Source: an uncultured Phycisphaeraceae bacterium
GTDB taxonomy: Bacteria; Planctomycetota; Phycisphaerae; UBA1845
Reading direction: 5' to 3'
Assembly: GCA_964548955.1 (NCBI GenBank)
Contig: CAZJTP010000110.1
Location: forward strand, 1-14,612
Length of the DNA: 14,612 bases
Part shown: piece after piece, positions 1,571 through 13,874 of the stretch
How the letters are laid out: each line of letters opens with the position of its first letter
How positions within the stretch are numbered: position 1 is the stretch's first letter
Notes under the pieces: model-generated
The model's database searches: none
The model's input: the letters and a program-made list of their open reading frames with translations, nothing else
What the model was told of the DNA's origin: nothing
Position numbers and translations under genes: made by a program

Positions 1571-2043
1571 TTGAACCATCAAACCGCCGTCCTACCGGAA
1601 GCACATCAACGATCAAATCGTATTCGATTTCATGTAGCGGTTTCGGGTCCTTGGAAGAAACGCTTGCCTCGAAGAATCCGCGCGGGCTTCAGGTCCGCAG
1701 CTCGGTACACAGAAACGGGAAATGCTCTAAAGCCCGACCTGGAGGCGTATCTGTTCTCCCCCCGCAGACGCTGCGGCAGAGTGGATCTTTCATCGTGATG
1801 GAAACCGACATCGTGGGGCGATGGAAGCGGATATGTAACGCCGCTGGTGTGGATGGTGTGACTATCCACGACCTGCGACGCACATGCGCAACACGCCTGC
1901 TTGACGCTGGTGTTTCCGTCAAAACGGTGCAAGGCCTGATGGGGCATCGGACCGCATCGACTACGTTGAGAAATGACGCTGGCGTAAGCGACCAACAGAA
2001 ACGGAATGCTGTAGCGAAGCTGAGGCGTATCGAGACTGCATGA
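1571..2043 (+). pseudogene. Tyrosine recombinase (phage integrase family) C-terminal remnant, probably inactive
   Basis: The frame of 1651..2043 reads ...GVTIHDLRRTCATRLLDAGVSVKTVQGLMGHRTASTTLRNDAGVSDQQKRNAVAKL. This is the HxLRxT ... LGH box II region, but RNDAG replaces the expected R-Y-x-H catalytic Tyr segment. The preceding integrase-like piece (TGNALKPDLEAYLFSP) lies in another frame (1571..1798). The N-terminal core-binding domain is absent, leaving only ~150 codons in total. Confidence 0.6.
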
Positions 2044-2088: not shown

Positions 2089-2172
2089 TAGGCGAGGCGG
2101 GATTCGAACCCGCACGGGGTATTACCCCAGGGGATTTTAAGTCCCCAGCGTCTGCCATTCCGCCACTCGCCC
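2089..2172 (-). tRNA. tRNA-Leu (anticodon UAA), type II with long variable arm, no encoded CCA
   Basis: Minus-strand read: GGGCGAG TG GCG GAATGGCAGA CGC T GGGGA CTTAAAA TCCCC TGGGGTAATACCCCGT GCGGG TTCGAAT CCCGC CTCGCCT A. It has a 7-bp acceptor stem (G1:U72 wobble), a 5-bp anticodon stem, loop CUUAAAA with anticodon UAA, a 16-nt variable arm and a canonical T-arm. The architecture parallels E. coli tRNA-Leu(UAA) as I recall it. Confidence 0.9.
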
Positions 2173-6938: not shown

Positions 6939-9146
6939 ATGAAGCCTGAATCGCTCATTCAACTGATCAGCACCGGCAATACCACAATCGTTGAAAAGGA
7001 GTGGATGCGCCTCATCGAGGCGGCGGACGTGCCGCCGGCGCGTCTGGCCGATTACCAGGGTGTCTTAACCGAGCTGTGCGCCGTGGGAAAGACCACACTG
7101 GCGGAGGAGTTCGCGTGGGCGGCTATCGAAACCACATCCGCTCGCCTGACACCGCGGGAGACGCTGACGGTTGCGGGACCGTTTCTTCTGGCCCTTGACC
7201 AGAGCGAGGTGCTCCGGGGTTTGGTTGTGGAACTTTACCGGTCCGCATACGGCGATCACGAGTGGCTTGACGAGCTGCTTGCCGAATCCGGTCTGGGTGG
7301 TGGTCGACCCGCGCGACGCGCCCTGCGAACACTCGATGTGTGTCTGTCGGTGACGGAGGGGGATTTTCTCGCGGCGCGCCACGAAGACGGCGCGGCGCGT
7401 ATCGAGAAGATCGATACGGCCTCCTGGCAGTTCACCATAACCGACGGGCAGGCGACCGAGACACTTGGAGCCGTGCATCTTGCGGACCAATACCGGCCTG
7501 CGCCGGCGTCGGAGTTTAAGGTGGTACGGAGGTTCGCGCCGGATGAACTTGCCAAGCGGCTATGGAATGACCCGACGCCGATCGTCATCGACATCTGCAA
7601 ACAGCATGAGGATCACATTGACAGCGATCTGCTCGAGGCGATCCTCGTACCGGGGCTTCTGCCTGAAGCCGACTGGAAGAAATGGTGGATGCGTGCCCGA
7701 ACCGCGTTGAAGAAATGTCCGAACATAAGCATTGAGGGCCGGTCGCCCTACGATCTGACGTACGTCGAGAAGCCGAACTCGCTGGAAGAGGAAATGCTGG
7801 AGGCGTTTGAACGCCAGCACGACCCGCTCGCCCGGCTCGATCTGGTGGAGAAGTACGTCCGGGAATGCAAGACTCGCGGAGAGCAACGTTCGGAGTCAGC
7901 GCTGCGACAATGCTATGACAGTTTTACGGAGCGCGCAAAACGGGGCACCCGGGAGGGGGTGGTTCAGGCCGGTCTTTTCTGGGTGATCGCCCGGCGGCTT
8001 GCTCAGCTTGCCGGTATCGAAGACTGGCCGGACGAAGCGATCGGACTGTTTCGCACGTCAACCGATCTGAAAGCCGTTTTTGGGGAAATCGAGAGCGACG
8101 CACTGCTCGATATTGCTTGCACGTTGCTGGTGGAAGCCAGGCCGGACGACTGGGCGGATCATCTCGCGGCTTTGCTGCCCATGCTTCCGCTGACGGTTTG
8201 CGATCGGACGGCGGGGCGGCTGATCAAGGCCGGTCGCGGCTTAGCTGATCTTGAGCTGATCGTGCAGCGGATCATGGGTTCGCCCGTTGAGCATTTCGAG
8301 GCGTTGCTATGGTTGTGGGACGGTCCTTCAGATACACAGAGGATCCCGGTTCCGGGGCCGGTAACGCTCCTGTCACGAATCCTTCGCACGTTGGACGACT
8401 GTCGACGTAGTGACAGGATTCCGCGTGAGACCACAAGAAGGCTGGGCGCACGTGCCCGGGCGGTTCTTTCGGCCCGCAAGTACGAACGGTTCGACCGGTG
8501 TCTCGATGAATTGGAGCCCGACATGGCCGGTCCGCTCCGTCAGCAGATTCGCCGACTGGACAGCTTTGGGCGGGCCTTGCGGGAAGACCTTGTGAGACGG
8601 CTGGACCGTCGCTTCCCACCGATTCCGTCGGGGCCCAGAGTTCAACCGTGGGCGCTCGACGACGTACTCTATGTGACCAAGGACGGCCTGGTCCGCAAGC
8701 AGGAAGAGATTGAGCATCACGTGAACGTCAAGATGAAGCGGAACGCCGAGGCCATCGGGCGGGCTGCCGCCATGGGTGATCTCAGCGAGAATTCCGAATA
8801 CAAGTTCGCGCTGGAGGAGCGTGATTTACTACGGGCCCGGCTCGCGCAGATGAACGGGGAGGTGGCCAAGGCGCGGATCCTCACGCCGGACGACGTCCCC
8901 GCCGACTATGTGGGGATCGGCACGAAGGTCATCTTTCGCCGCACGACGGACGGGCAACCCTATGAGATGTCGTTCGTAGGACCGTGGGAGGCGGACCTGG
9001 ACAGGTCCTGGTTCAACTACGGGGCTCCGGTCGCCCGAAAGGTCTTAGGCAAACACATCGGGGACGTCGTGGAGTTCGACCACGGTGACGTGGCAGGCAG
9101 CTACGAGATTGTGGCGCTGGGAAATGCCCTTGCTGAGAATGAGTGA
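6939..9146 (+). CDS. greA: Long-form GreA/GreB-family transcript cleavage factor: ~575-aa N-terminal extension plus a 160-aa Gre module
   Basis: The C-terminal 160 aa (8664..9143) read LVRKQEEIEHHV...AAAMGDLSENSEYKFALEERDLLRARLAQMNGEVAKARIL...IGTKVIFRR...YEMSFVGPWEADLDRSWFNYGAPVARKVLGKHIGDVVEF...YEIVAL. This matches the GreA coiled-coil tip (GDL.EN.EY with the acidic D/E pair) and the globular domain (VG..EAD.....S..SP.ar.LlGk..GD.v). I cannot place the N-terminal 575 aa in any family. Confidence 0.8.
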   Translation: MKPESLIQLISTGNTTIVEKEWMRLIEAADVPPARLADYQGVLTELCAVGKTTLAEEFAWAAIETTSARLTPRETLTVAGPFLLALDQSEVLRGLVVELYRSAYGDHEWLDELLAESGLGGGRPARRALRTLDVCLSVTEGDFLAARHEDGAARIEKIDTASWQFTITDGQATETLGAVHLADQYRPAPASEFKVVRRFAPDELAKRLWNDPTPIVIDICKQHEDHIDSDLLEAILVPGLLPEADWKKWWMRARTALKKCPNISIEGRSPYDLTYVEKPNSLEEEMLEAFERQHDPLARLDLVEKYVRECKTRGEQRSESALRQCYDSFTERAKRGTREGVVQAGLFWVIARRLAQLAGIEDWPDEAIGLFRTSTDLKAVFGEIESDALLDIACTLLVEARPDDWADHLAALLPMLPLTVCDRTAGRLIKAGRGLADLELIVQRIMGSPVEHFEALLWLWDGPSDTQRIPVPGPVTLLSRILRTLDDCRRSDRIPRETTRRLGARARAVLSARKYERFDRCLDELEPDMAGPLRQQIRRLDSFGRALREDLVRRLDRRFPPIPSGPRVQPWALDDVLYVTKDGLVRKQEEIEHHVNVKMKRNAEAIGRAAAMGDLSENSEYKFALEERDLLRARLAQMNGEVAKARILTPDDVPADYVGIGTKVIFRRTTDGQPYEMSFVGPWEADLDRSWFNYGAPVARKVLGKHIGDVVEFDHGDVAGSYEIVALGNALAENE

Positions 9147-9229: not shown

Positions 9230-10294
9230 ATGAAGGCTGCGATTATCGGCTTGCCGCAATCCGGTAAATCAACCCTGTTTTCCGCCGTCACCGGAGTAGC
9301 CGTGGACCCATACGCCGCACGGGAACCGCACCAGGCGATCGTGCAGGTTCCCGATCCGCGGCTGGATTATCTGGCCGATCTCGGCAAGCCCAAGAAGGTC
9401 ACTGAGGCCACAATCGAATTCGTCGATGTGCCGGGTTGTTCGCTGGATGACGCAAAAGGGCAGGAGGAGTGGCGCCGCCTGCTTCCCGTGGTGCGTCAGG
9501 CAAATCTGCTGGTGATCGTGACGCGAGACTTCGAGAACGCAGCCGTACCGGCCTACCGCGACCGCGTCGACGCCAGGGCCGACTTTACGGCCGTGTGGGA
9601 TGAGATGATCTTCGCCGATCTTGATGCCGTCACAACCCGTATCGAGCGGATCGAAGCGGCCCTCAAGAAACCCACGAGATCGCATGAGGCTGAGAAACGC
9701 GAACTCGCCTTGCTGACGCGATGCCGTGAGGCCCTTGAGTCCGAGGCGCCGCTTTCCTCGGTAATCTCGACGGAAGAGGAACGTCGAGAAGTGTCGAGCT
9801 TCGCGTTCCTGACCGAAAAGCCGCTGGCAGGGGTGCGCAATGTGTCCGACGACCGGGCAGCGGACACGGAGCACTGGGAAATCCCCAACGTACAAGAGAC
9901 CATCAGCCTGAGCGCTTCGATCGAGGCGGAGATTGCGATGCTCGATCCAAAGGATCGGCCGGTCTTTCTGGCTGATCTGGATCTAAACGAGCCCGCAAAA
10001 GACCGGCTCATCCGCACGTGTATCAGGGCCTGTGATCTGATCTGCTTTTTCACGATGAACGCTGACGAGCTACGGGCCTGGCTGGTGCCGGCGGGCACCA
10101 CGGCCGTCGAGGCGGCAGCCAAGGTCCACACCGACCTTGCTCGTGGGTTCATCCGTGCCGAGACCGTCTCACATGACGACCTGGTGGCCCATAAGGACAT
10201 GAAGGGTGCGAAGGCAGCCGGCCGAGTCCGAAAGGAGGGTAAGACGTACGTCGTTACGGACGGCGATCTCCTCCAAATCCTCGCGAGTACGTAG
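9230..10294 (+). CDS. ychF: Ribosome-binding ATPase YchF (Obg-like GTPase family)
   Basis: MKAAIIGLPQSGKSTLFSAVTG contains the P-loop, followed by DVPG. The C-terminal YchF/TGS-like domain is present: RAWLVPAGTTAVEAAAKVHTDLARGFIRAETVSHDDL...KAAGRVRKEGKTYVVTDGDLLQI. GGAG lies 9 nt upstream of the ATG. Confidence 0.85.
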   Translation: MKAAIIGLPQSGKSTLFSAVTGVAVDPYAAREPHQAIVQVPDPRLDYLADLGKPKKVTEATIEFVDVPGCSLDDAKGQEEWRRLLPVVRQANLLVIVTRDFENAAVPAYRDRVDARADFTAVWDEMIFADLDAVTTRIERIEAALKKPTRSHEAEKRELALLTRCREALESEAPLSSVISTEEERREVSSFAFLTEKPLAGVRNVSDDRAADTEHWEIPNVQETISLSASIEAEIAMLDPKDRPVFLADLDLNEPAKDRLIRTCIRACDLICFFTMNADELRAWLVPAGTTAVEAAAKVHTDLARGFIRAETVSHDDLVAHKDMKGAKAAGRVRKEGKTYVVTDGDLLQILAST

Positions 10295-10315
10295 AGCAAG
10301 CAGTCTTTTCATGTA

Positions 10316-10339
10316 GCGCCGGCCCCTTGTGGGCGGCGC
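10316..10339. terminator. GC-rich hairpin in the convergent ychF / beta-helix intergenic region
   Basis: GCGCCGGCCCC-ttgt-GGGCGGCGC gives a ~9-bp stem with one bulge, 22 nt after the ychF stop. There is no U-tract, so the terminator role is uncertain. A perfect 16-nt palindrome GGGTCCGCGCGGACCC lies at 10383-10398. Confidence 0.25.
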
Positions 10340-10505
10340 AATGTGCCGTGAGTGCCAGCAAGGCGGCACGGCCGGGTGGCATGGGTCCGCGCGGACCCGT
10401 GTGGCGTACCAAAGAGCCTACTCCGTTAATCCTTGGGGCACCGGTTTTCATCTGGTGAAACACACGGGTTGCGAATCCGTGCCACATTGCCTACTCAGAT
10501 AAGCT

Positions 10506-11828
10506 TCAAGGCTGCGGGCCTTTGAAGAACACCTGAAACAGCGCGAAGTCGTGCAAGTCCACATCGCCGTCGAACTCGAAATCGAACGCTTCACAGCCCG
10601 AATCATACGGTCCGTTGTCCGGACCGGTCATGCAGGCTTCCCAGGCGGCGAAGTCGGTCAGGTCAACAGTCTGATCGCAGTCGTAGTCCCCAATGCCGAA
10701 CTCGTACGCGCCCATGTCCACGCGGTCGCACAGGATCCGTGCGTGACCGTCGAGGTCGGTAGTGACCTGCGGCGGCACGGCCTCGTTGTCCCCGGTGTTG
10801 ATGCAGGGCGAGTCGGCCTGCAGGTGGTAGTCGCCATCGACCCAGAAGCCATCGTCCGGATCGCCCGGTGTGCCGTTGTCGTCCCAGTACCCCGGATCGA
10901 CAAACACCGGGTCGTCGTCGATGTTGCCGTTGGTCCCAGTGGGGTCGGACAGACCCTCGTAGTCGTACTCGGTGTTGCTGCAGACGCAGTTGTACCGTAG
11001 CGTCGGGGTGCCGGCATAGTATTGGTCTTGCCGAATCCCCGAAGAGTTGAACGCGACAATTGTGTTCGCGATTGTCGGGGAGGAGTAATCATACAGGTAC
11101 AGCCCGCCGCCGCCGTACTCGTCAGCGCTGTTGCCCGTGATCGTGTTGTTCTCGATCGCAGGGGAGGAGAAGGCCAGGTACAGCCCGCCTCCGCCGTCAG
11201 CGATGTTGCCCTTGATCGTGTTGTTCGCGATCGTCGGGGAAGAACCGTATAGGTACAGCGCGCCGCCGGAGCCGGCGCTGTTGCCCGAAATCGTGTTGTT
11301 CGCAATCGTCGTCGGGGAGGCTTCCAACAACAGGCACAGCCCGCCGCCGTAAACGGCTGCGATGTTATCCGTGATCGTGTTGTTCACGATCGTCGGGGAG
11401 GAGGAGTACAGGCACAGCCCACCGCCGTAGTCGCCGGCCTCGTTACCCGTGATCGTGTTGTTCGCGATTGTCGGGAAGCTCCAGCCTAGGTACAGCCCGC
11501 CGCCGCGGGTGTACGAGCCGAACACCGTGCCGGAGCCGTTGGTGATCGTGAAGCCGTCGATGGCGCCGACTGCTGCGCAGCCCGCTCGCGCGGTCACCAC
11601 CGAGCCTTCCTGCTGCCCGTCCAGAGTCGTGAGATTGGCGTCCCAGTTTCGCTCCGCCCGCACCGTCTCGTAACCGGCAAACCCGCCGTACAAATACGCA
11701 TAGGGATGGAGTGTGATGCGCTCCTCGTACGTGCCGCCCTGTACCCACACCTCGCCGCCAGGCCCGAACCACATCCTGAGATTCTGCTGCACATGGCGGA
11801 CCGATAAAGTCGGTGTAGACCAGCCCAA
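10506..11828 (-). CDS. Right-handed parallel beta-helix repeat protein with a C-terminal dockerin-like double Ca-loop module; N-terminus suspect
   Basis: There are six or more coils of the form GGGLYL..SSPTI.NNTI.GN.A, an upstream GFTITNG, and the tail GDYDCDQTVDLTDFAAWEACMTGPDNGPYDSGCEAFDFEFDGDVDLHDFALFQVFFKGP (10509-10691). The only start is TTG at 11828, with no SD and no signal peptide. An in-frame stop lies at 11889-11891. Confidence 0.75.
   Translation of the reverse strand: MGWSTPTLSVRHVQQNLRMWFGPGGEVWVQGGTYEERITLHPYAYLYGGFAGYETVRAERNWDANLTTLDGQQEGSVVTARAGCAAVGAIDGFTITNGSGTVFGSYTRGGGLYLGWSFPTIANNTITGNEAGDYGGGLCLYSSSPTIVNNTITDNIAAVYGGGLCLLLEASPTTIANNTISGNSAGSGGALYLYGSSPTIANNTIKGNIADGGGGLYLAFSSPAIENNTITGNSADEYGGGGLYLYDYSSPTIANTIVAFNSSGIRQDQYYAGTPTLRYNCVCSNTEYDYEGLSDPTGTNGNIDDDPVFVDPGYWDDNGTPGDPDDGFWVDGDYHLQADSPCINTGDNEAVPPQVTTDLDGHARILCDRVDMGAYEFGIGDYDCDQTVDLTDFAAWEACMTGPDNGPYDSGCEAFDFEFDGDVDLHDFALFQVFFKGPQP
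11043..11507 (-). repeat. Tandem ~69-75 nt coding repeats (beta-helix coils)
   Basis: On the plus strand, (G/A)TCGTGTTGTT(C)(G/A/T)C(G/A)AT(C/T)G(T/C)... recurs, each followed by (T/G)ACAG(C/G)CC(G/A)CC(G/T)CC. Copies begin near 11139, 11214, 11289, 11363 and 11450. Confidence 0.7.
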
Positions 11829-12060
11829 AACGGCGTTCGTCGCAGAAGTCTGACGCCGCGACGAGCTGCGCCGATCGCGGACTTCTTTTCAGCGGAGTTT
11901 GATACAATGGATTAGCGATTGCCCTCGACGGCGAAAGCAGTGGAGGGGTGAGAGGCCGTCAAACCCGTTTGAAGGTTCCCTCGCAACGCGATCCGGTCGC
12001 GCAATCGATGTCGGCCAAGCCCGGCAAATAGAAACAGGCGGTGTTCTGTGGAGCAATGAG

Positions 12061-13452
12061 ATGAAATCAGTAACAGCAAGACTATTGTCCGTGGCTGCCG
12101 GCGTCTTGGTTTCCACGGGATCCAGCACTGCGGCTGAGCCAATCGGAACAGCGTTCACCTACCAGGGGCAGCTAAAAAATGCCGGCGTTCCGCTGACCGG
12201 CACGGCGGACCTGGAGTTCAGCCTGTGGGACGGCGCCGACGCCGGCGAACCGCCAGCCGGCGGAAGTCAGATCGGCCCGACGGTCCACGTCACGAACGTC
12301 GCCGTCACCAATGGCCTGTTCAGCGTCGAACTGGATTTTGGAGCCTCCGCATTCGCCGCCGACGCTCGTTGGCTTCAGGTCGCCGTGCGCTCGCCGCACG
12401 ATCCGGGCGACACACAGCCCTTCACCACGCTCGCGCCGCGGCAGGCATTAACGCCCGCTCCCTTCGCCCTCGCGACCCGCGGCATCAGCCCCCGACAGGT
12501 GTCGGCTTTGGAGGTCCAAAGCAGCATGGGTGGCTTTGTGAACATGTCCAATATCACGGCGTGTCTGCAAACGGATGAGGACATCAAGTGTGACGAGGTG
12601 GTTTTACTCGATGTCGCCCTTCACGAAGGCGTTGAGATCAGCCTCGAGCTTGTCTCCCTAACATCCAGAGAAGAAGCACTTCAACTCGAAATCGAGAAGC
12701 GACCACAGCAGTCAGCTTCAAGCATCAAGGCGTTCACTGTGGACGTGAAGGTGACATTAGGGTCAGAGGCTCATGAGTTCTCGGTCTCACCGGCCGATCC
12801 GATCTACGGGTCCAAGCACGATTCGACGTGGCCGCACACAACGTGGGATTTCGTGGTGTGGCTGGCCGACGATACACACTTGCGGGTGGCGACCGAGCTT
12901 TCGACCCTCAAGTCGATCACCACGGAGTCCGCCGGCGCCATCACCGCCGCCCAGGTCGAGACCTATGGCGAATTCGCGCAGGACGTGAACGTAACCGTGT
13001 CCGTTACGAACATTGGCGACTACAGAACCAACTACATCGTTATGCTGACCGATTGTGCATCGACCGTCGATCCGGTCCCTGCCCAAGCCCGGATGTTTGA
13101 CCCGGAAGAGACCGTGGACTTCGTGTTCAACCTGCACAACAGCGCTCCGTTCGGCGACGCCGACCAGTGCACGGCCACCATCAAGCAGCCCCACGGGAAG
13201 ATCTACCCCCCGTTCACGGTCGACTTCCCGCCGCCCACCGCAGGGCTATCGGCTCCCGCCGCACAGCCCCCGCCCCAACCCAATGTTGACTGGCCTCCTG
13301 CCGCTCGAACAGTCGAACGTCTTGCCTCGCATCAACCATCGGTTGACGTCATCAACGCAAGACGCGGTGAGATGGCCGACCTCAAGGCTCGACTCGAGGA
13401 GCTTGAAGCACTCGTGGAACAACTGCGTTCCACGCGAGAGGACGGCGAATAA
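12061..13452 (+). CDS. Secreted mosaic protein (463 aa): signal peptide, FTYQGQL-type N-terminal module, candidate fusexin/HAP2-like domain I + III segment, Pro-rich linker, C-terminal coiled coil
   Basis: ATG at 12061 with GGAG 7 nt upstream. The signal peptide is MKSVTARLLSVAAGVLVSTGSSTAAEP. Residues 30-140 (FTYQGQLKNAGVPLTGTADLEFSLWD...VTNGLFSVELDFGASAF..DARWLQVAVRS...LAPRQALTPAPFALA) form a module I recognise from many secreted PVC/Acidobacteria proteins. Residues ~158-392 are discussed in the findings. Residues 433-460 (RRGEMADLKARLEELEALVEQLRS) are heptad-like. There is no C-terminal TM segment. The track start at 11899 is rejected. Confidence 0.8.
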   Translation: MKSVTARLLSVAAGVLVSTGSSTAAEPIGTAFTYQGQLKNAGVPLTGTADLEFSLWDGADAGEPPAGGSQIGPTVHVTNVAVTNGLFSVELDFGASAFAADARWLQVAVRSPHDPGDTQPFTTLAPRQALTPAPFALATRGISPRQVSALEVQSSMGGFVNMSNITACLQTDEDIKCDEVVLLDVALHEGVEISLELVSLTSREEALQLEIEKRPQQSASSIKAFTVDVKVTLGSEAHEFSVSPADPIYGSKHDSTWPHTTWDFVVWLADDTHLRVATELSTLKSITTESAGAITAAQVETYGEFAQDVNVTVSVTNIGDYRTNYIVMLTDCASTVDPVPAQARMFDPEETVDFVFNLHNSAPFGDADQCTATIKQPHGKIYPPFTVDFPPPTAGLSAPAAQPPPQPNVDWPPAARTVERLASHQPSVDVINARRGEMADLKARLEELEALVEQLRSTREDGE

Positions 13453-13874
13453 TGAACAAGCATGCACGAACGACGATCCACATGCTGACCGCCACTGCGA
13501 TGCTGGTGTCCGGCATCGCAATGGCGGACGAGTTCGAAATGACCCGCTGGACGATCGACGGCGGTGGGGCGATGCACAGCACCAGTGGGGACTTCGAGTT
13601 GTCCGGAACGGCCGGCCAAACCGATGCCGGCGCGTTGATGATTGGCGGTGAATTCGAGCTGACCGCCGGGTTCTGGTTTCGACAGGCCGAGGGCGACTGC
13701 AACTGCGACTCAGCCGTCAACCTTTTCGACTTCGACGCGTTTGTGGATTGCGCGGGCGACCCGGGTGGCGGGCTGATCGCACCCGAGTGCGTCTGCTTCG
13801 ATTTCGACGGCGATGACGACGTTGACATGGTCGACTTCGCGCTGTTCCAGCGGCAGTTCACCGGGCCACATTGA
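13452..13874 (+). CDS. Small secreted protein (140 aa): signal peptide, GTxGQxDAG...GGFW-type motif, dockerin-like double Ca-loop module
   Basis: The ATG overlaps the previous TAA (TAATG at 13450-13454). The sequence reads MNKHARTTIHMLTATAMLVSGIAMA | TIDGGGAMHSTSGDFELSGTAGQTDAGALMIGGEFELTAGFWF | GDCNCDSAVNLFDFDAFVDCAGDPGGGLIAPECVCFDFDGDDDVDMVDFALFQRQFTGPH. The tail is clearly homologous to the tail of 10506..11828. Confidence 0.8.
   Translation: MNKHARTTIHMLTATAMLVSGIAMADEFEMTRWTIDGGGAMHSTSGDFELSGTAGQTDAGALMIGGEFELTAGFWFRQAEGDCNCDSAVNLFDFDAFVDCAGDPGGGLIAPECVCFDFDGDDDVDMVDFALFQRQFTGPH

Follow-up and report, generated by a model that had tools for sequence, protein, structure and literature searches.

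The 14,612-nucleotide stretch of DNA considered here (the window) carries, at 12061..13452 on the forward strand, a gene for a 463-residue protein (the window protein) in which residues 158-392, encoded by 12532..13236 according to the open reading frame translation, are homologous to HAP2/GCS1, the class II fusogen of eukaryotic gametes. A GGAG stands ahead of the ATG at 12061. A longer alternative reading frame with a TTG start runs from 11899, and it is not needed because translation from the ATG at 12061 gives a typical signal peptide, alignable with how the homologues begin. The identical 463-residue product is called in three independent assemblies, which excludes an assembly artefact for this gene. 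A preliminary description, made from the letters alone, had proposed the likeness of residues ~158-392 to HAP2/GCS1 and had named profile searches against Pfam and the PDB, a structural model with a structure search, and a hunt for longer homologues as the means of checking it. Its coordinates, the peptides it quoted and the cysteines C168, C177, C332 and C370 are exact in the translated product.

The window protein begins with a signal peptide (residues 1-24, 12061..12132, MKSVTARLLSVAAGVLVSTGSSTA followed by AEP) that was read from the sequence, and homologues have the same N-terminal hydrophobic leader. On this basis the protein is predicted to be secreted. An N-terminal β-rich module follows (residues 27-135, 12139..12465, 'TAFTYQGQLK...ARWLQIAVR...PRQ'), as delimited by the homologue alignment, of which it contains the most invariant columns, and by β-strands at residues 31-129 in the model. 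The HAP2-type part consists of domain I (residues 158-285, 12532..12915, predicted strands A0-I0), which carries C168 and C177 on its A0-B0 ribbon, and of domain III (residues 290-392, 12928..13236), an Ig-like sandwich with C332 and C370 that closes with the family-typical 'DFPPP'. Beyond domain III lie a Pro-rich linker (residues 393-426, 13237..13338), predicted from its sequence and from a predicted local distance difference test score (pLDDT) below 50 at residues 400-426 to be disordered, and an amphipathic helix or short coiled coil (residues 428-458, 13342..13434, ...EMADLKARLEELEALVEQLRSTRE). The helix has a clean heptad pattern, appears in both the homologue alignment and the model, and is kept in the relatives P0005, P0006, P0007, P0008 and P0123.

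Homology to HAP2/GCS1 and the missing parts

The window protein scores 46.4 bits against the Pfam family HAP2-GCS1 (PF10699), for which the gathering score is 27.4 (E=2.9e-12), with residues 287-382 aligned to profile positions 364-458 of 515, and the match of domain III is much too strong to be due to chance. As a single sequence searched with phmmer against the PDB, it finds HAP2 of T. cruzi (5ow4, E=5e-4) and no other credible match. A profile of ten family sequences matches HAP2 structures only (T. cruzi 1.6e-14, Chlamydomonas ~1e-11, Arabidopsis 9e-9, C. merolae 1.7e-7), as does a profile of 70 sequences (Chlamydomonas 4e-19, T. cruzi 2e-16, Arabidopsis 7e-14).

The relatives were collected by an exhaustive HMMER search of 1.84 billion representative proteins with the HAP2-like region as the query. 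It returned 429 proteins, 224 of them at E<=1e-10, that fall into two classes: the minis, to which the window protein belongs and which match in one piece over ~250 residues, and the long forms (520-900 residues), which match in three pieces. PF10699 is also matched by 56 of 70 mini relatives. The archaeal fusexin Fsx1 is not matched by the sequence profiles of either class against the PDB.

The start of domain I is weak when taken alone, with the C..C strand matching the first 45 HAP2 residues at 6.7 bits, collinear with the main match. When minis and long forms are compared with hhalign, 239 columns are aligned, among them the C..C strand and the whole of domain I (probability 100, E=2.8e-40), and the match of the domain I start, which the preliminary description had proposed, is thus proven through the full-length bacterial intermediates. 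The Chlamydomonas string that this description gave for domain III was correct and the one for domain I inexact (the real sequence is GRLEKCVVDGVTEELDCQEKVVVTLTV), with the same pattern, and the spacings it reported, from G to Y six residues on and from Y to C seven residues on, hold against the real Chlamydomonas sequence.

Structure prediction gives the same answer. An AlphaFold2 model of residues 155-395 built from the alignment of 70 minis reached a pLDDT of 95.6 and a predicted template-modelling (TM) score of 0.87. The seven best Foldseek matches in the PDB are all HAP2 chains (E=1.6e-9 to 2e-7, query-normalised TM 0.70-0.74), with alignments that span the entire HAP2 ectodomain, and HAP2 was already the top match of a full-length model made from 10 sequences (pLDDT 71). 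The isolated domain 3 of P. berghei HAP2 fits at TM 0.73-0.77 with a root-mean-square deviation of 2.2-3.3 Å. Next in the list are Fsx1 (E=6e-5, TM 0.40) and then the Gc proteins of Atlas virus, Rift Valley fever virus and Crimean-Congo haemorrhagic fever virus (TM 0.45-0.53). The model fits post-fusion HAP2 trimers well and the C. merolae structure poorly (TM 0.26), which suggests that domains I and III are packed in a folded-back arrangement.

The two cysteine pairs are conserved. C168 and C177 are both cysteine in 64/67 minis, 95/99 long forms and both eukaryotic sequences, and they correspond to the A0-B0 ribbon, which in HAP2 is disulfide-bonded (PMC6170185). C332 and C370 align with the cysteines of HAP2 domain III; among the long forms 48 have both, 54 have neither and one has a single cysteine, a co-occurrence that is probably the signature of a disulfide pair.

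The alignment between minis and long forms is interrupted by exactly two large gaps, of ~108 residues after '...IEKRP' and of ~125 residues after '...LxxD'. The long-form block absent at the first point (YPLxYFHTVAYYP..CGWT..SQGFC..FHGYEIG) is the first half of domain II, and the block absent at the second (ELDNYILYIP..MLLVPREEVS..NQLFHKHNSDL..ETTYLVHG) is its second half. Together the two segments hold the most conserved HAP2 blocks. They also include the old 'HAP2-GCS1 domain', located at the junction of D2.1 and D2.2 (PMC6170185). In the window protein, the first excision point is a short loop, RPQQSASSIK (residues 215-224, 12703..12732), between strands 206-215 and 225-233, and the second, placed by the hhalign gap and the AlphaFold2 model, is a tight turn, ADDT (residues 269-272, junction 271/272, 12865..12876). 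The domain II of class II fusogens is inserted in two parts, one into the D0-E0 and one into the H0-I0 connection. In the model, the two junctions divide the strands into four, four and one, with the Ig-like domain coming next, which is the canonical D0-E0/H0-I0 insertion topology.

The preliminary description had already seen that domain II and a transmembrane anchor are missing, and the two gaps and the lack of any hydrophobic segment past domain III agree. It had placed an aromatic-rich stretch, SPADPIYGSKHDSTWPHTTW, where domain II would be; this stretch aligns instead with a segment (SPxNPxY..D..Y.G) that belongs to domain I and is conserved in the long forms. Past domain III, a hydrophobic 19-mer is found neither in the window protein nor in any of 68 minis, and 57 of the 68 end within 12 residues of domain III. 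The tail of the window protein, in the place of a stem and anchor, consists of the Pro-rich linker and the amphipathic helix. The window protein is thus domain I plus domain III only and not a complete fusexin.

Bacterial relatives and genomic context

The mini family comprises at least 67 clusters in bacterial metagenomes. A word-indexed search found ~10 full-length homologues of the window protein at 39-58% identity, all with precomputed PF10699 matches, among 762 matches of which most cover only the N-terminal ~115 residues. A 73%-identical homologue is present in a metagenome-assembled genome (MAG) of Phycisphaerae, and this, together with the leader peptide and the bacterial flanking genes, bears out the earlier view of a secreted bacterial protein of planctomycete type. 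Pfam collagen repeats stand directly upstream of the module in 15/70 minis, and more have G-X-Y runs; ~12 of 68-70 have an N-terminal coiled coil, and the subgroup of the window protein has a C-terminal one.

The long forms, apparently the sister group of the minis, number more than 100 (P0142-P0360; loci L007, L009-L011) and are full-length bacterial HAP2/GCS1 proteins in which a signal peptide is present and domain II is complete. They match positions 2-482 of 515 of PF10699 (E=1e-48 to 8e-72), and their profile matches PDB structures of HAP2 end to end (T. cruzi 3.4e-53 over 8-483, Chlamydomonas ~3e-47, Arabidopsis 3e-38, C. merolae 2e-33). The preliminary description had asked for longer homologues with both a full domain II and a transmembrane anchor: the former were found, but a transmembrane segment occurs in only 4/103. 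Dockerin-like tails occur in 43/103. The four (P0245, P0255, P0261 and P0360) have a transmembrane helix and then a Cys-rich basic tail as in eukaryotic HAP2, and are probably protist sequences within the hit list. In three others (P0148, P0163 and P0201) the C-termini are oddly rich in Trp and Arg (…RRSWLRW, …WRWMWMSRRRWR, …KHRWWRHGPFQR), which could be an unrecognised sorting signal or a frameshift product.

By source name, the hosts of the long forms are MAGs of Planctomycetota, Phycisphaerae, Anaerohalosphaera, Thermodesulfobacteriota, Nitrospira and 'Desulfobacteria' (P0144 from Anaerohalosphaera, P0165 from Thermodesulfobacteriota and P0342 from Nitrospira, for example). One long form, P0311, bears the NCBI name 'HAP2/GCS1 family protein [Phycisphaerae bacterium]', and the statement in the preliminary description that no bacterial member was known is thus untrue at the level of databases. 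Relatives lie on bacterial contigs of 62-317 kb; those with long forms, up to 317 kb, also encode SAICAR synthase, sigma-70, PilM/MreB-like proteins, pilin N_methyl proteins and histidine kinases, and the long forms themselves carry Bact_surface_Ig-like, dockerin, collagen and TIG domains. Eukaryotic contamination was considered and rejected on the grounds of the bacterial flanks, the contigs of up to 317 kb, the Bact_surface_Ig-like and dockerin architectures and the pilin-type neighbours.

The neighbours of the gene at 12061..13452 encode a TPR membrane protein, an ABC ATPase, a PaaA/C-like protein, a 735-residue GreA-like protein and YchF, and a secreted β-helix/dockerin protein is encoded divergently. 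The G+C content is flat across the window (0.58-0.65). At the far left, the C-terminal part of a phage-type tyrosine integrase, left as a fragment at 1651-2043 (+) (PF00589, E=4.9e-12), adjoins a tRNA-Leu(taa) gene at 2089-2172 (-), and the 1651-2172 region looks like a decayed integrative element. This single scar is ~10 kb from the HAP2-like gene, and the 3' end of the tRNA gene is directed away from it. The preliminary description had spoken of an accessory context scarred by mobile elements, whereas with housekeeping neighbours and uniform G+C the local context is ordinary chromosome. The GreA-like gene (6939-9146, +) encodes the GreA/GreB transcript-cleavage factor in its last ~160 residues, preceded by a ~570-residue extension, and the precomputed Pfam annotation of the same gene in L001 includes an HTH_GRAD family.

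The synteny comparison rests on few loci, namely two GTDB loci and one metagenome locus from a narrow alignment. Elsewhere, homologues have nuo and YjeF or RecG, PurM and UbiE as neighbours, and once AbiE with a recombinase. In this last case (L013, 273-4815), the mini P0007 has an AbiEi/AbiEii toxin-antitoxin pair on one side and a serine recombinase on the other, among the mini loci compared the only mobile- or defence-like context. In L004, two tandem mini paralogues (10001-11446 and 11443-12396) overlap by 4 nucleotides and stand beside the nuo operon and a YjeF_N gene.

Directly downstream, and overlapping the HAP2-like gene by one nucleotide (TGATG), a gene at 13452..13874 (+) encodes a secreted protein of 140 residues. 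It is conserved downstream of minis in L008 (11283-11708) and L014 (2040-2462), and the three minis concerned are ~40% identical to one another. The 140-residue protein has two 'F-E-L-(S/T)-G' Gly-rich hairpin repeats (FELSGT.GQ.DAG and FELT.GFWF) and then a C-terminal module of Cys/dockerin-like type; neither Pfam nor PHROG gives a match to it, and it is likely a partner of the window protein. Its C-terminal module resembles tails that are fused to other minis and to long forms. The same module, of ~60 residues, recurs at 10512-10691 (-) of the window, at 16663-16797 (-) of L008 and at 196-405 of L014, where it ends neighbouring secreted proteins that include the β-helix protein at 10506-11828. 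The exoproteins of the host may have it in common for anchoring or sorting.

The N-terminal module of the window protein has no Pfam, NCBIfam, PHROG or PDB sequence match. Hundreds of exoproteins of tail-fibre type from Planctomycetota and Chloroflexota have it too; many of them end in Peptidase_S74, and their identity to the window protein over residues 25-140 is ~50-67%. Like the window protein, these have a signal peptide, coiled-coil necks and the same N-terminal module; unlike it, they have fibre or β-helix bodies, and none of those listed has a HAP2 module.

Function of the reduced module

With eukaryotic HAP2/GCS1 (PF10699; 5MF1, 6DBS, 6E18, 5OW3, 5OW4, 7S0K), the window protein shares domain I with the A0-B0 ribbon, domain III with its Cys pair, the D0-E0/H0-I0 topology and a predicted post-fusion-like packing of the two domains. 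Unlike it, the window protein comes from a bacterium, has the extra N-terminal exoprotein module and the C-terminal coiled coil, and has neither stem nor transmembrane anchor. With domain II it also lacks the fusion loops or helices, the Arg185 carbonyl cage and the 'HAP2-GCS1' core motif (Chlamydomonas residues 352-399). The bacterial long forms are its closest relatives by sequence (mini profile E to 1e-41); they share its phyla, the signal peptide, the absence of an anchor and the accessory modules such as dockerin-like tails and collagen, but they retain a full domain II with CGW..SQGFC and NQLFHKHN, of which the window protein has neither half. The gene for archaeal Fsx1 (7P4L) is carried by integrated mobile elements, and the protein, which has domains I-IV and three transmembrane helices, fuses cells in experiments (Moi et al. 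2022, PMC9259645). Fsx1 is likewise prokaryotic and belongs to the same structural superfamily with a related fold, but in sequence it is only remotely similar to HAP2, and the window protein is a much nearer relative of HAP2. The window protein, with two domains, unanchored and chromosomal, has no domain IV, no transmembrane helix and no integrated mobile element around it. Viral class II proteins (flavivirus E, bunyavirus Gc, Atlas virus Gc-like) have the same DI/DIII fold family, and, unlike the window protein, domain II, fusion loops, stem and transmembrane anchor; sequence similarity to them is not detectable.

These comparisons make it probable that the window protein is a secreted, Phycisphaerae-like protein whose HAP2 module has been reduced to domains I and III and which has a non-fusogenic role at the cell surface, in adhesion or in recognition. 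The two domains would form a rigid two-sandwich scaffold in the folded-back arrangement of post-fusion HAP2. The C-terminal coiled coil would oligomerise the protein, probably into trimers, as N-terminal coiled coils or collagen triple-helix repeats may do in sister minis. The N-terminal module would display or target the protein, as in fibre-like exoproteins, and the extracellular function would probably be exercised together with the small secreted protein encoded downstream. Most simply, the window protein would be descended from bacterial HAP2/GCS1 proteins of full length and have lost domain II. Collagen is an obligate trimer, and the recurrence of oligomerising modules fits a trimeric assembly without proving a trimer.

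Several points weigh against this proposal. The folded-back orientation of domains I and III may be biased by the training of AlphaFold on post-fusion HAP2, and the sole ground for proposing trimerisation is the adjacent coiled-coil or collagen modules in relatives. In a neighbour-joining tree of the domain I and III columns of 173 sequences, the minis group together with P0180 as the nearest long form, with a bootstrap of 0/200 for the split of the minis and saturated distances. The tree is unrooted, and both a loss of domain II and an ancestral form that lacked it would be compatible with it.

The main rival to a surface or adhesion role is that minis are regulators or accessory subunits of the long forms, decoys of domains I and III that co-assemble with, cap or block long-form trimers. 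Minis and long forms share phyla, Phycisphaerae/Planctomycetota among them, domains I and III can clearly be aligned between the two classes, and exogenous domain III is known to block class II fusion in alphaviruses and flaviviruses. Yet a mini and a long form occur together in none of the loci examined, and the long forms, too, are without a transmembrane anchor, so that we regard a regulatory role as unlikely.

That the window protein is a working bacterial fusogen, in which the aromatic loop of domain I, or else the GFWF protein encoded downstream, would stand in for a fusion loop, is far less probable still. True HAP2 homology, an adjacent oligomerising coiled coil and a translationally coupled downstream protein with exposed Gly/aromatic 'GFWF' hairpins would speak for it. 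The class II mechanism, however, requires one element that inserts into the target membrane and another that anchors the protein in its own. Domain II, fusion loops, stem and transmembrane anchor are all absent, the aromatic stretch belongs to domain I and is no substitute for domain II, and no member of the mini family has an anchor. Because it has no membrane-inserting part and no anchor, the window protein would be unable to run the class II fusion cycle, and membrane fusion by it is very unlikely, judging from its sequence. The preliminary description's candidate fusexin, in the functional sense of the term, is not supported.

A similarly slim chance is given to the notion that the gene encodes a tail-fibre or receptor-binding protein of a phage or prophage, with the HAP2-like part as the distal binding module. 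The N-terminal module is common to 'tail fiber domain-containing' proteins that end in Peptidase_S74, a gene of this type adjoins the homologue in L005 and L006, and one homologue lies in the AbiE/recombinase locus. Against this, no relative of minis or long forms was found in 2.9 million viral contigs, there is no PHROG match, and a structure search of BFVD gave weak class II glycoprotein matches only and no phage homologue; around the gene there are housekeeping genes and none for phage structural proteins, and the G+C content is uniform. Lastly, a generic Ig- or CARDB-like sandwich or a chance motif match, for which the factor XIII and transglutaminase Ig-like domains in the Foldseek list (E ~1e-3 to 1e-5) could be cited, is refuted by the Pfam score above gathering, the PDB profiles that match HAP2 exclusively, the continuous chain of homologues to full-length HAP2, and a two-domain superposition at TM 0.70-0.74 as opposed to ~0.33 for the Ig-only matches.

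Origin and meaning of the bacterial branch

The ancestral gamete fusogen of eukaryotes is HAP2/GCS1, and where it came from is an open question. An alternative to derivation by loss is that the minis are no degenerate HAP2 proteins but the surviving pre-fusogenic scaffold, a secreted two-sandwich protein of bacteria into whose D0-E0 and H0-I0 loops domain II was later inserted. This scenario seems improbable; if it were true, a bacterial clade that is secreted, unanchored and much closer to eukaryotic HAP2 than Fsx1 is would mark bacteria either as the place from which the gamete fusogen of eukaryotes came or as one of its early recipients.

Full-text literature searches, with subscription journals outside their scope, returned no description of bacterial HAP2 or fusexins. 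Bacterial MAG assignments of fsx1 were given only 'with caution' by Moi et al. (PMC9259645), and papers from 2026 still name Fsx1 as the first or only prokaryotic fusexin. The bacterial HAP2 branch is large and apparently undescribed in the literature, though automated annotation already tags it with PF10699.

Two bacterial groups have plain sequence homology to HAP2, namely full-length proteins without an anchor and a derived family of domains I and III to which the window protein belongs. If experiments confirm this, the host range of the family extends to Bacteria, and the minis would provide a natural 'domain II deletion' with which domains I and III can be dissected on their own. The direction of transfer between bacteria and eukaryotes, and the order in which class II fusogens acquired their domains, would then become testable.

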